64,000 nucleotides of DNA from a virus (lineage: Duplodnaviria; Caudoviricetes), in IMG/VR virus record IMGVR_UViG_3300037067_013058, positions 1-64,000 of that record. The stretch is one strand, 5' to 3'. The position numbers were made by a program, and so were the translations under genes. The notes under the pieces were generated by a model. The model was not told where the DNA came from. It searched no databases and saw nothing but the letters and a program-made list of their open reading frames with translations. This document shows positions 3,650 to 8,055 of this stretch, piece after piece. How positions within the stretch are numbered: position 1 is the stretch's first letter; every line of letters begins with the position of its first letter.

Positions 3650-3951
3650 GCGTCCCCTATGTGATTTAATGCTGACGAATTTGCTGCTGTTACAAAGGCC
3701 AAAAGAATTGGGCTAATACCAGAAAGGAATTCTACCAATTTCCTTTGCAAAAAATCTTCGGGCATTCCCGGAAGAGCAAATGGAGAAGTCTTTAGAAAAC
3801 GAGCTACAAGATATTTGTTGAGAATATTCATGTCTTCAAGGAGCAAATCGTTACTTAAACTTTCCATGTACTTGGAAGCATAAGCAAGTAGTTGAGCGTC
3901 TGAGAAATTAGATTCCATAGTGTGTGCGTACTGCTTTCTCAAGTTGTGCAA
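3646..3951 (-). CDS. hypothetical protein
   Basis: ORF following the recA C-half; true start probably MESNF. Confidence 0.45.
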   Translation of the reverse strand: MHNLRKQYAHTMESNFSDAQLLAYASKYMESLSNDLLLEDMNILNKYLVARFLKTSPFALPGMPEDFLQRKLVEFLSGISPILLAFVTAANSSALNHIGDA

Positions 3952-4729
3952 GAAGTTCAGGATTATTTTTTAGGGCTTCCCATGCATTGTCCTTACCTTG
4001 ACCAATACATTCGCCATTGAAATCCAACCATGCGCCACGCTTGGAAACTACACCACAATTCATTCCGCAAAGGAGAATATCTAGGGCACGGGGGACGCCT
4101 TCACCGTATCGGATTTCTGTTTCTGCTACTTTGTATGGAGGAGCAACCTTGTTCTTCACTACCTTTATTTCTGTCAAATTGCCTAGAATATCTTCACCCT
4201 TCTTTATCTGCGCCTTACGTCTAATATCCAAGCGAATAGAAGCATAAAACTTTAGCGCATTTCCACCAGAATTGTGAGATAAAACCCCCTCTGAAAAATA
4301 ACAACCATTTTCCATCTTAACATCTACAACCGGAATTAGCTTATCTGAAGGTCTGACAAAAATCGGCTGCGATGCTACCCCCGAAGGTTTTTCAGAAAGA
4401 ACAGAATATTGTAGCAAAGAGGTGGAAAGATCAGCTAAAGACACCCAATCATAATTTTCATCCTTATACTTTGCATAAAGAAAATGCTCTGGGCTCCCTG
4501 AAAATAAATAATGAAACCCCCCAGGCCCTTTTTCATAGACCTTATACTCCTGTCTATCATTTTTTCTAATAATTCCCAAAATTTTGCTTTTAACAATCTC
4601 CCCCCCAGCATAAGACTTTAAATACTTGTTCTGATCAGATACATCAATCATCTTTCCAATTTCCATATTCTGGATCTGGAACCCGAGTTGCTTGAAAAGT
4701 TCTTCCATCGAAAGTTGCTGTGTATTCAT
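3908..4729 (-). CDS. recA: split-intein C-fragment (~153 aa) fused to RecA C-terminal half (120 aa)
   Basis: ATG at 4729 with GGAG SD; intein block B-like SGSPEH, block F VVDVKM, block G SHN followed by S; then SGGNALKFYASIRLDIRR...KVVKNKVAPP...IGQGKDNA of RecA. Confidence 0.9.
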   Translation of the reverse strand: MNTQQLSMEELFKQLGFQIQNMEIGKMIDVSDQNKYLKSYAGGEIVKSKILGIIRKNDRQEYKVYEKGPGGFHYLFSGSPEHFLYAKYKDENYDWVSLADLSTSLLQYSVLSEKPSGVASQPIFVRPSDKLIPVVDVKMENGCYFSEGVLSHNSGGNALKFYASIRLDIRRKAQIKKGEDILGNLTEIKVVKNKVAPPYKVAETEIRYGEGVPRALDILLCGMNCGVVSKRGAWLDFNGECIGQGKDNAWEALKNNPELLAQLEKAVRTHYGI

Positions 4730-5702
4730 TAAAATCTCCGTTCGTATCAATCATTCTCTCAAATACTATAGGGTTATAGGAATACAGTGTTTTCTTACCT
4801 GTCCCCCTTTGCGAATCCGGAAGCCTAGTACGGACACTAATTCTTTTATTTCCAACCTCAGTTAAAATTCCTAAATATTTTAAATATGCTAACCTTGCCA
4901 AAACCCCATTTCCAAAACTGGGAACAAGTGGATGACAATTTTGTATCATAGAATCGCTAAGAGTGTCATCTAAAAGATATTCCAACATTTCAGGAATATC
5001 AGGAACAAAAACACCCTTTAATGCTTTATATTCTGTGTATGAGTTAGGAATCGATTCTATTTTTGCAGAAACTTTACTTTTGGCTGCTTGCACACGACCT
5101 GCCGGATCTTTTGAAAAATAATCCATATATTGGGAAAACCCGCTAACTTCAATATAGCCCTTGAACTGGTAGTATGCAAGGGCTCTGTGCAATTTAACAG
5201 ACATTCCAAGCCGCTTATTTACCAAACCACTAATAAATCTGTCCGGTAAATTGGTGCAGCAAGAATAATAACAAACCATGGGTGCAATTCTTTCGTACAC
5301 ACCCAACCAACGCTTGACAAAATCTGGATTCCCATATCCACGACTTGCCTCGGAACAAAGTTTTCTTGCTCTCTCGGCATAAGGACCCTGCCAAACTGTC
5401 CACCCTGCATTTGCTTCCCCACCAATAGCAACATTATAATTTGTTTTTTGGCTAACAAAATCTATATTAACTATACGTTTCTCCTCTAACAAAGCCTCTT
5501 CTCTAGAAGAATGTGTAGATAAAGTCTGTCTCAAAAAATTATTTCTACCAAATTTACTAATTGCTTGCTTCAAAACATGTCCTGACCCTAAATACCCATC
5601 CCCCAAATCATTGGTGGAATGAACACCAACATACTCCTTATTATTTACTAAACACGTTGTTTTGTACACTATGTGGTACTTTCTCTCTGGTGTATTACTC
5701 AT
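4644..5702 (-). CDS. GIY-YIG (Seg-like) free-standing homing endonuclease
   Basis: N-terminal IVYKTTCLVNNKEYVGVH...YLGSG...EE...YNVAIGG; lies between the two recA halves. Confidence 0.85.
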   Translation of the reverse strand: MSNTPERKYHIVYKTTCLVNNKEYVGVHSTNDLGDGYLGSGHVLKQAISKFGRNNFLRQTLSTHSSREEALLEEKRIVNIDFVSQKTNYNVAIGGEANAGWTVWQGPYAERARKLCSEASRGYGNPDFVKRWLGVYERIAPMVCYYSCCTNLPDRFISGLVNKRLGMSVKLHRALAYYQFKGYIEVSGFSQYMDYFSKDPAGRVQAAKSKVSAKIESIPNSYTEYKALKGVFVPDIPEMLEYLLDDTLSDSMIQNCHPLVPSFGNGVLARLAYLKYLGILTEVGNKRISVRTRLPDSQRGTGKKTLYSYNPIVFERMIDTNGDFNEYTATFDGRTFQATRVPDPEYGNWKDD

Positions 5703-5703
5703 T

Positions 5704-5732
5704 GGTATAACCTCCTATTAGGAGGTTATACC
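5704..5732 (-). promoter_or_regulatory. 13-bp perfect hairpin sequestering the endonuclease RBS
   Basis: mRNA GGUAUAACCUCCU-AAU-AGGAGGUUAUACC, then A and AUG; the SD AGGAGG lies in the 3' arm. Confidence 0.85.
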
Positions 5733-5745
5733 TTAAAATTATTCG

Positions 5746-6444
5746 CTAATCTAAAGCGAGTTCCACCTTTGTACTTGGGTGAACACAAGTAGTTTCAGGG
5801 CTGCCAAAAAGAACACCAATCTTGTAACGAATTTGATTTGTGAAATAAACCATAACGCCCGACTTAGAAACACTGCTTGTCAACTTCCTCAAACCTTGCC
5901 CCATAAGCCTTGCCTGAAGACCAACGTGGCTGTCTCCGACCTCTCCATTTAGTTCAGCCTGAGGAGTCAACGCGGCTACAGAATCAATAACAATGATGTC
6001 CCCCTTAGTCAAAATACTGGACATAAGGACAGCCATCTCTAAAGCACGTTCACCGCTATCTGGCTGATCAATAAGAAGGTTCTGAACATCCACACCAACT
6101 TTTGATGCATATCCGGTATCCAAGGCGTGTTCAGCATCGATGAAAGCCGCAACGCCACCGGCTTTTTGCACAGCAGCAATGGCATGTAATGTGCAGGTCG
6201 TCTTTCCGGCTGACTCTGGGCCATACACCTCGATAATTCTGCCATGAGGATAGCCCCCAATACCAAGAGCAATATCAAGAGAGGCAATTCCGCTGGAAGT
6301 AGAAGTAATATCTGAGACTACTCCGTCACCTTTCATCCATTGAAGGTCATTACGAAGATCCTTATTCTTCGATTCCAGAGCTTTAAGAATTTCAACAATC
6401 CTATTCGTCTCAACTACTGGTTCAGTTGGTGTTTTCTTTGCCAA
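5746..6444 (-). CDS. recA: RecA N-terminal half (219 aa) fused to 13-aa split-intein N-fragment
   Basis: [21 protein letters not shown] Walker [42 protein letters not shown], then [16 protein letters not shown]. Confidence 0.92.
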
Positions 6445-6447
6445 AAT

Positions 6448-6705
6448 TTACTCTACCTTTTGCTTCGAAGAAAAGAGATTACCAGCATTCTTAAAATTGG
6501 CTACTTCAATAACCAAAAGTTCCGGCCCTTTCTGAAGTAAGCCCACCGAGTCTTTATTTCCGTCTTCGTATACAGGAACAAGAGTACGGTCCTTCCTAAC
6601 TAGAACCTCCAAATTAGTAAGATCAGAAAGCAAAATCTGCTGAAGTTGATAAATTGCACTGTTCAAACTTTCATTTACAGCAGAAAGATCCTTCATTTTT
6701 TCCAT
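6448..6705 (-). CDS. hypothetical protein
   Basis: 85-aa ORF with AAAGG SD between SSB-like gene and recA. Confidence 0.55.
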   Translation of the reverse strand: MEKMKDLSAVNESLNSAIYQLQQILLSDLTNLEVLVRKDRTLVPVYEDGNKDSVGLLQKGPELLVIEVANFKNAGNLFSSKQKVE

Positions 6706-6741: not shown

Positions 6742-8055
6742 CTACCACGCACGCTTACCAGGAGGGGGACCCTTCGGAGGTGTGCGACCACCAGCAGTAA
6801 CTTGTGGTACCATTGGGATGGGCGAAGCAGGTACCGGAGCCGCAGGAGCAGCAGCCGGAACAGGAGACGGTGCTGAAGGCGCTGGCATGGGCGTAGGAGC
6901 CGCCGCAGCCGCAGCGGGCATTGGAGGGGCCGTTGGTGCCGTTGCAGCGACTGGTGGGGCAACTGGAGCCGCAGGAGGGGCAGGAGGAGCAGGAGGAGCA
7001 GGGGGAGCCGCAGCAACCGGAGGACGTGCTACCGGGGCAGTCACAGGGGTAGTCACCGGGGTACTTGCTTGTGCCGCAGCCTGACCCAGATAATACCTTT
7101 GTTCATCATAAGTAATCAAGTTCAGGAACTCACTCGGATCAACCATTGCATCCACATTCTGCACATATGCTAGCCAAGACGGATCAAGCACTACCCGCCC
7201 AGGAGCAGCAACTACATCGTACTGCGTTAGCATCATCTGGCCCTGTGAGCACCTTTCCGTGTCCTTAACAATGTAAAGAACCTGAACCCCTGCCGGATTC
7301 TCCATGTTATAGAATTCCTGACCATCCGGCGACATTTCGCACAACGTTGCCAGCTTGTCAAACACCTTCCCAGGCGCGAGCCACATCTGATGCTCAATCG
7401 TTTCCTGGCCCTCACGCAGCGGCTTGACACCCGCGATTTGATCATAGTCCATAATTGGTAGAACGTACTTATCTGATGCCTGAAGCTTCCTGGCCTTCTC
7501 CCGTGCATTCTTCAGTACGGAATCCTTATTCACAAGATCATTATAACCGTCCTTGCTCAGATTCTTACGGGTTTCCTTCGTATGTCCAAGTTCCTCAAGC
7601 CTAGCATTGAACTTATTCCACCAAGCCTGTTCCTCTTCACAAAATGCACAACGAATTGGTTGGTTAAATAGAGGCTCAAACCCAAGCACTTCGGTCAGGT
7701 ACTTGTTGAAATGAATTGGACAAACCGTATTAGCAAAGCCAACTGATCCATCGGGTCGGGAATAATTGCTAACACTGTGAACCGGAACCTTGAAATAGAA
7801 TGAGCAAAGATCAGCCGGAACACTTGCCGTAGCATTGCCAGTAGCCGCCATATTGAACTTGGCTACATCATTGACCGTTGGGTTGAAAATCTTCCACCTT
7901 GACGGATAGAACGTAGGAATTAGCACACCATTATTGTGCTTCTGCTTTGCTGCATCTGGTAGTGGTGAAAAGAGCTTACTAACGCCCTTTGATGGTGTAG
8001 GATTTGTCTGATTAGCTGCCTTCTCTGCTGCGATTGGCATGTTCATCTTTCCCAT
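6742..8055 (-). CDS. putative gp32-like ssDNA-binding protein with long Pro/Ala-rich tail
   Basis: VPVH...CPI...CAFC putative Zn ligands; next to recA; low-complexity C-terminus. Confidence 0.5.
   Translation of the reverse strand: MGKMNMPIAAEKAANQTNPTPSKGVSKLFSPLPDAAKQKHNNGVLIPTFYPSRWKIFNPTVNDVAKFNMAATGNATASVPADLCSFYFKVPVHSVSNYSRPDGSVGFANTVCPIHFNKYLTEVLGFEPLFNQPIRCAFCEEEQAWWNKFNARLEELGHTKETRKNLSKDGYNDLVNKDSVLKNAREKARKLQASDKYVLPIMDYDQIAGVKPLREGQETIEHQMWLAPGKVFDKLATLCEMSPDGQEFYNMENPAGVQVLYIVKDTERCSQGQMMLTQYDVVAAPGRVVLDPSWLAYVQNVDAMVDPSEFLNLITYDEQRYYLGQAAAQASTPVTTPVTAPVARPPVAAAPPAPPAPPAPPAAPVAPPVAATAPTAPPMPAAAAAAPTPMPAPSAPSPVPAAAPAAPVPASPIPMVPQVTAGGRTPPKGPPPGKRAW

Follow-up and report, generated by a model that had tools for sequence, protein, structure and literature searches.

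A fractured phage recA gene with a candidate S1-split intein around a GIY-YIG homing endonuclease gene

Fractured genes, short-N split inteins, and the recA locus

Host genes fractured by a split intein and a homing endonuclease gene were described by Dassa, London, Stoddard, Schueler-Furman, and Pietrokovski in 2009, at gp41, NrdA, NrdJ, IMPDH, DnaE, ligase, and terminase loci from ocean metagenomes (PMC2677866). In these loci the host gene is divided between two open reading frames (ORFs), each carrying one part of the intein, and a free-standing GIY-YIG or Vsr-like gene lies between them. Hairpins are marked before the endonuclease genes, and overlaps of 6–69 bp with the gene for the C-terminal intein piece (IntC) are recorded; both features are frequent in fractured-gene loci and not strictly defining of them (PMC2677866). 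Here we describe a locus of this layout in recA, at positions 3908–6444 of the first 64,000 nucleotides (positions 1–64,000, the window) of IMG/VR virus record IMGVR_UViG_3300037067_013058, a metagenomic contig of 79,059 bp with an estimated completeness of 45%, in which these are the only RecA pieces. It is very probably a fractured phage recA gene, interrupted within a class-1 intein split at the S1 position, from which RecA would be assembled by protein trans-splicing.

As in the loci of 2009, the host gene is present as two extein–intein ORFs that share a strand and are separated by a free-standing homing endonuclease gene, in a phage-like setting, and both the hairpin in the 5′ leader of the endonuclease gene and the overlap of this gene with the IntC gene are found. 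The locus differs in its host, recA being absent from the seven enzyme types of that study, and in the length of the overlap, which is 86 nt here. It would add recA to the list of fractured genes, by a mechanism that is not of a new kind. The three genes are each in a different frame, and their parts are as follows (IntN, N-terminal intein piece).

5746–6444, minus strand: ORF for RecA-N plus IntN, 232 aa, TTG start at 6444, ending in TAG
5788–6444, minus strand: RecA N-extein, 219 aa, with C-terminal GSPETT (Pfam RecA, 1.2e-80, profile positions 5–203)
5749–5787, minus strand: putative IntN, 13 aa, with Cys1 nucleophile and block A
5746–5748, minus strand: TAG stop of the N-piece gene
5704–5732, minus strand: hairpin before the endonuclease gene, perfect over 13 bp with a 3-nt loop; ATG 5702 follows
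4644–5702, minus strand: free-standing GIY-YIG homing endonuclease gene, 352 aa
3908–4729, minus strand: ORF for IntC plus RecA-C, 273 aa, from ATG 4729 with GGAG 6 nt upstream
4271–4729, minus strand: putative IntC, 153 aa, with blocks B, F, and G and the terminus GVLSHN
3908–4270, minus strand: RecA C-extein and stop, 120 aa from Ser+1 (SGGNALKFYAS; Pfam RecA, 9.6e-22; RecA_C, 8.2e-16)

The spacer between the TAG stop and the GIY-YIG ORF is 43 nt. Over its first 86 nt, the IntC gene coincides with the 3′ end of the endonuclease gene, in a different frame, and both the ATG and the GGAG of the IntC gene lie within these last 86 nt of the endonuclease gene. A first-pass annotation of the window had read the same end of RecA-N, followed by a 13-aa IntN (5749–5787) and TAG, and a separate ORF from ATG 4729 for an IntC of ~153 aa with SGSPEH and SHN that continues into SGGNALKFYAS; these assignments and coordinates were recovered here. 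Recoding of the TAG was considered and rejected, as it had been in that annotation: read-through meets an in-frame TAA 17 codons on, at the start of the endonuclease gene.

Most natural split inteins have a long N-part, with IntN of about 100–130 aa (PMC13014065), whereas the break in the window falls near the intein N-terminus. Natural atypically split inteins have IntN pieces of 15–37 aa (PMC13014065, March 2026), the range that the first-pass annotation had given. The 15-aa piece of PolB16 is called ‘record-short’ in the same source and ‘the shortest characterized so far’ in another (PMC10189870), and further listed lengths are 16 aa for VidaL, 25 aa for AceL-TerL, and 11 aa for the artificial M86 (PMC13014065). 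S1 is the natural split site of VidaL and PolB16 (PMC13014065), and with VidaL (16-aa IntN, 6vgv) and PolB16 OarG (15-aa IntN, 8cpn; PMC10189870) the window intein shares the S1 break, a short IntN, and a long IntC; like VidaL, it is of the cysteine-dependent type (PMC13014065). Nevertheless, common descent with these two was not indicated. The IntC family profile described below reaches VidaL only at E = 0.018, with 15% identity in structural alignment, and PolB16 is unmatched by sequence, the structural identity to the pair being 13–15%. Furthermore, the nucleophile pair is Cys1/Ser+1 in the window and Ser1/Ser+1 in PolB16, the host protein and the insertion site differ from those of PolB16, the host of which is a PolB-type DNA polymerase, and IntN is 13 aa in the window and 11–16 aa across its family. 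The family is therefore distinct from VidaL and PolB16, and no published description of it was found; a literature search, with most subscription journals outside its scope, returned no paper on an atypically split RecA intein.

AceL-TerL and GOS-TerL (IntN of 25 and 37 aa; PMC11766414) are likewise natural short-N split inteins from environmental metagenomes, but they are split later, after the first helix (S2, PMC13014065), have longer N-pieces, and sit in a terminase host. The engineered M86 Ssp DnaB intein (cited in PMC13014065; 6frh) has an N-piece of similar length (11 aa) and is artificially split and laboratory-evolved, whereas the window intein occurs naturally, in linkage with a homing endonuclease gene; the IntC family profile and both structural models (below) match DnaB mini-inteins. 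The Mycobacterium tuberculosis RecA intein (2in9 and others) has the same host protein and the HINT fold. It differs in being contiguous and bacterial, with 12–17% identity in structural alignment, and it reportedly sits at a different RecA site.

Extein continuity, intein identity, and split position

The two exteins (219 + 120 aa) join into a contiguous RecA of 339 aa, as the first-pass annotation had proposed. The survey of related phages for an intact recA that it had called for provided five phage RecA ORFs lacking an intein at this site, against all of which the joined protein aligns with no gap across the junction; removal of the element therefore leaves an uninterrupted host protein. 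One of the five (L005) natively reads GSPETT-SGGNALKFYAS, which identifies Ser+1 as a native RecA residue. The N-extein aligns to residues 30–209 of Escherichia coli RecA, with its last residue at T209 and the intein Cys opposite T210. Loop L2, the limits of which we take to be residues 195–209, would then carry the insertion at its C-terminal edge; the first-pass annotation had placed the site in L2.

The motifs expected of an intein are present in both pieces. IntN opens at the Cys codon 5785–5787 and reads CVHPSTKV..., close to the family pattern C-V-x-P-[DE]-T-x-[VI]-x-[VI]. In IntC, block B is of the Ser-x-x-His type (S79-P-E-H82), block F is represented by D136 and Y144, and block G by S151-H152-N153, followed by Ser+1. 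A search of 1.84 billion representative proteins with IntC gave 71 matches at E ≤ 0.001: the product of the window itself and 70 other representative clusters (the closest, P0002, being 56% identical). In an alignment of the window IntC with 49 of its relatives (A1, 50 sequences), five positions (H82, D136, Y144, S151, and N153) show no variation, and H152 is conserved to at least 90%.

A comparison of IntC with intein models, proposed as a check in the first-pass annotation, divided between the single sequence and its family: the window IntC was unmatched (see below), and 39 of the 49 aligned relatives individually match Pfam PF14890 (Intein_splicing; best 7.3e-8). The IntC family profile also matches solved inteins, namely Spl DnaX (7.5e-12), KlbA (7.6e-12), NrdJ-1 (4.6e-10), and Aes123 PolB1 (4.5e-8), as well as gp41-1, Pho RadA, and Ssp DnaB. 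The window IntC modeled by AlphaFold2 with alignment A1 reaches a predicted local distance difference test score (pLDDT) of 95, and the 50 best PDB matches that Foldseek listed for this model comprise only inteins and HINT domains, headed by the Pyrococcus RadA intein with a template modeling (TM) score of 0.70. Both this model and that of a contiguous relative show the predicted HINT horseshoe fold. With PF14890 and the family profile, no second intein was detected in the 79-kb record.

Several of the relatives are contiguous inteins within RecA. The one that was modeled (P0018, locus L015) provides the reference for the split position, as it occupies the identical RecA site (GNPETT / CVHPDTMVDVIRNLVSVESMTMENLF...SHN / TGGNALKFYAS, with slashes at the intein boundaries). 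Of the 13 residues of the window IntN, 6 are identical to those at the start of this intein (CVHPDTMVDVIRN); in comparison with the N-piece of another relative, P0023 (CVHPSTEVEIMR), 8 of 12 are shared. Modeled at pLDDT 97.3, the contiguous intein shows a strand (residues 7–12), a turn (13–15), a second strand (16–21), and a helix (22–28), which places the break of the window intein, on this model, in the turn after the long N-terminal strand, that is, at the S1 position. The 13-aa IntN thus ends after the N-terminal strand, and the long IntC retains blocks B, F, and G; IntC starts with the partner strand, followed by the first helix. In the IntC-only model, residues 1–7 form an unpaired coil of lower confidence, and the Foldseek scores rise when the N-terminal residues are present, as in the contiguous model, which gave 61 matches at E ≤ 0.001 and TM scores of 0.70/0.75 against VidaL (6vgv) and 0.54 against PolB16 (8cpn).

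The extent of IntC depends on its start codon. Most of its relatives can be aligned from their own residues 1–8 onward, through the pattern S-[MI]-E-x-L-F...G-x-D-Y..M....IDVSDKN, and this conservation supports ATG 4729 as the true IntC start. In the public annotation, the gene (P0001, 247 aa) begins 26 residues later, at the Met after the endonuclease stop, and is by the same comparison too short. Automatic annotation of this kind drops 26 conserved residues (4651–4729, minus strand), hides the overlap, and shortens the intein.

The free-standing GIY-YIG gene that the first-pass annotation had seen between the halves is recognized by Pfam SegE_GIY-YIG (27.9 bits, cut-off 25) and by PHROG 314 ‘homing endonuclease’ (1.4e-29); an NCBIfam model for group I intron endonucleases scores 2.2e-5, below the model cut-off. 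The protein has an N-terminal GIY-YIG catalytic domain and a long C-terminal part, as expected of a GIY-YIG homing endonuclease, and its catalytic domain is 41–42% identical to those encoded by the intervening genes of four related loci (L011, L016, L018, L021). No second copy of the endonuclease is present in the 79-kb record. The hairpin at 5704–5732, ending 1 nt before the ATG region, pairs the AGGAGG ribosome-binding site of the endonuclease gene, and the surrounding 71-nt stretch (5690–5760) folds at −27 kcal/mol (z = −6.6), with 0 of 200 shuffles as good. By burying the ribosome-binding site, the hairpin probably represses translation of the endonuclease. Promoter and terminator scans returned nothing above chance.

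Trans-splicing and its alternatives

The origin and operation of the locus may be envisaged as follows. A class-1 mini-intein would have occupied the site between the codons that correspond to T209 and T210 of E. coli RecA, and a GIY-YIG gene would then have landed in the DNA for the turn after the long N-terminal strand of the intein, creating two genes, with RecA(1–219) plus the 13-aa IntN and the 153-aa IntC plus RecA(220–339) as their products. After translation, IntN would dock as the missing edge strand on the nearly complete HINT fold of IntC, and ordinary splicing would proceed in trans through Cys1, the His of block B, the Asp of block F, the His-Asn terminus, and Ser+1, releasing the 339-aa RecA with the junction ETT-SGG. 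The conservation of the catalytic residues makes such activity most likely. The endonuclease, its translation probably held down by the hairpin, would cut recA alleles without the cassette and thereby spread it.

Several observations weigh against this account. Taken by itself, the window IntC is unmatched by the intein models of Pfam, NCBIfam, and PHROGs, and a phmmer search with it against PDB sequences returned chance matches to ribosomal proteins only and no solved intein; because of this, the identification of the window element as an intein draws on its family membership and on the predicted fold. The structures were predicted for IntC alone and for the contiguous relative rather than for the IntN–IntC complex. 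At its fifth position, IntN has Ser instead of the Asp or Glu found in most relatives. Finally, as the record is estimated to be 45% complete, a second, intact recA elsewhere in the genome is possible.

The intein halves might bind one another without splicing, to give a non-covalent two-chain RecA, or one half might merely be cleaved off. In its favor, the Aeh1 nrdA gene is a fractured phage gene with parts that function without an intein (cited in PMC2677866; subject of PMC3045599), and the short-N PolB16 split intein shows up to 25% C-cleavage (PMC13014065). However, all of the catalytic positions are intact in the window, being invariant or nearly so in 50 family members, and a bulky HINT domain of 166 residues at the DNA-binding loop L2 would probably block the RecA filament; we regard this explanation as improbable. 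That the locus is instead a pseudogene, a recA killed by insertion of the homing endonuclease gene and now decaying in two pieces, is less probable again. The reading frame is indeed interrupted by the endonuclease gene, and the incomplete contig leaves room for another recombinase elsewhere, but each piece is open over its full length and scores strongly as RecA, the C-piece is equipped with an ATG and a GGAG of its own, and the layout recurs with conserved intein motifs in thirteen divergent phage loci (described below), which indicates selection.

Joining of the halves could also occur at the RNA level, through a group I intron carrying the GIY-YIG gene, as in the recA genes of Bacillus and phage 0305phi8-36. 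Introns of this group that harbor endonuclease genes are known from recA, where they apparently interrupt the sequence for the same loop (PMC3239194, PMC2677866). Against this, Rfam gave no match at E ≤ 1 on either strand of positions 3800–6600, and the flanks of the endonuclease gene encode recognizable intein parts, which share the frame of the exteins and are homologs of the contiguous intein, so that an intron is highly unlikely. An artefact of assembly or sequencing, with a false stop or a chimeric contig, is the natural concern for a metagenomic source; here, the stop, the 43-nt hairpin spacer, the endonuclease gene, and the overlapping start are paralleled in 13 loci from twelve sample numbers, and we give this explanation almost no weight. 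Assembly of RecA by trans-splicing at an S1-split intein is the explanation that we retain.

Recurrence in phage recA and neighboring observations

With the family alignment as query, 18 loci (L011–L028) were recovered from IMG/VR. Thirteen have the three-gene layout (L011–L014, L016–L018, L021, L022, and L024–L027; twelve different sample numbers, taken from the contig names), which shows that the arrangement did not arise by chance, and two (L015 and L028) are contiguous. In most of the split loci the intervening ORF is ~300 aa, and overlap with the IntC start is usual. IntN is 11 aa in L011 (CITPDTLVDIL) and L018 (CVAPETLIDID), 13 aa in L013, L016, L021, and L024, 14 aa in L012/L014, L017, L025, and L026/L027, and 16 aa in L022. 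Since the 13 loci span 11–16 aa, with two at 11, the 13-aa IntN of the window is the family norm and not an extreme. The suggestion in the first-pass annotation that 13 aa could be among the shortest stands with respect to the published natural minimum of 15 aa and falls within the family, where the length is ordinary. Short natural N-pieces are wanted in protein chemistry, as they can be synthesized as peptides carrying labels; a family with natural N-pieces of 11–16 aa, on which selection would have acted for function in trans, offers many candidates, among which the 13-aa piece in the window is an ordinary example. By tblastn, neither IntC nor the contiguous relative matched anything among 50,697 GenBank phage records, and blastn of the whole locus gave short recA matches only.

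Both endonuclease types of the loci of 2009 (PMC2677866) are represented, with GIY-YIG intervening genes in L011, L016, L018, and L021 and Vsr-like genes (DUF559/MTES_1575) in L012, L013, L022, and L025. When insertion points were compared over the 18 loci and 70 proteins (P0002–P0071), three were found within ~9 codons of the RecA L2 region: after KIG, after (G/S)PE, and after ETT. Among the endonucleases that could be typed, Vsr-like genes accompany insertions at KIG, and GIY-YIG genes those at PE or ETT. The group I intron endonuclease I-Bth0305I has a 14-bp target in phage recA (TTcGgtgatcCaAA; PMC3239194), and the target reads as F-G-D-P in one frame (the frame being provisional), which suggests that the recA group I intron shares the hot spot. 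In uncultured phages, the most conserved DNA-binding loop region of RecA is thus a hot spot at which selfish elements insert. We lean, by a little over even chances, towards a single large S1-split lineage that has settled at three positions of the RecA L2 region, each with its own endonuclease type, the N-pieces of which, at 11–16 aa, would include the shortest natural ones known if active, and which has left RecA in three pieces in some phages.

Among the relatives of IntC are proteins of unusual architecture. P0023, P0043, P0066, and P0068 (165–170 aa) consist of an IntC, a RecA extein of 6–9 residues (e.g., TIFGNPETT), and a second IntN, which is 11–12 aa where counted. On their sequences, these mini-proteins imply a recA in three genes, with two candidate split inteins a few codons apart. 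P0008, P0029, P0039, P0046, and P0059 carry a split IntC, an extein of ~9–11 residues, a second, contiguous intein of the same family, and a RecA/UvsX-like C-terminus; their two inteins are nearly back to back. In P0015 and P0026, a Cys/His-rich N-terminal region of ~275–295 aa is fused in frame to an IntC of the same family. This region is probably an endonuclease, and the arrangement may reflect either fused genes or a gene call that continues across the overlap.

A further RecA ORF, in a different locus (L004:2705–4435, 686 aa), has ~830 nt inserted between its matches to RecA residues 51–79 and 67–219. The insert may be another intein, near the P-loop.

Elsewhere in the window are genes for a family A DNA polymerase, an SNF2 helicase, an SbcD-like nuclease, a baseplate J protein, and an M23 peptidase, a gene content that points to a tailed double-stranded DNA phage. 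Just upstream of recA, a 437-aa ORF (6742–8055, minus strand) encodes a protein with a Cys-rich central part (CPIH...CAFCEEE) and a long Pro/Ala-rich C-terminal tail. It has no match in Pfam or PHROGs; judged by its position, it may be a partner protein in single-strand DNA binding or recombination.

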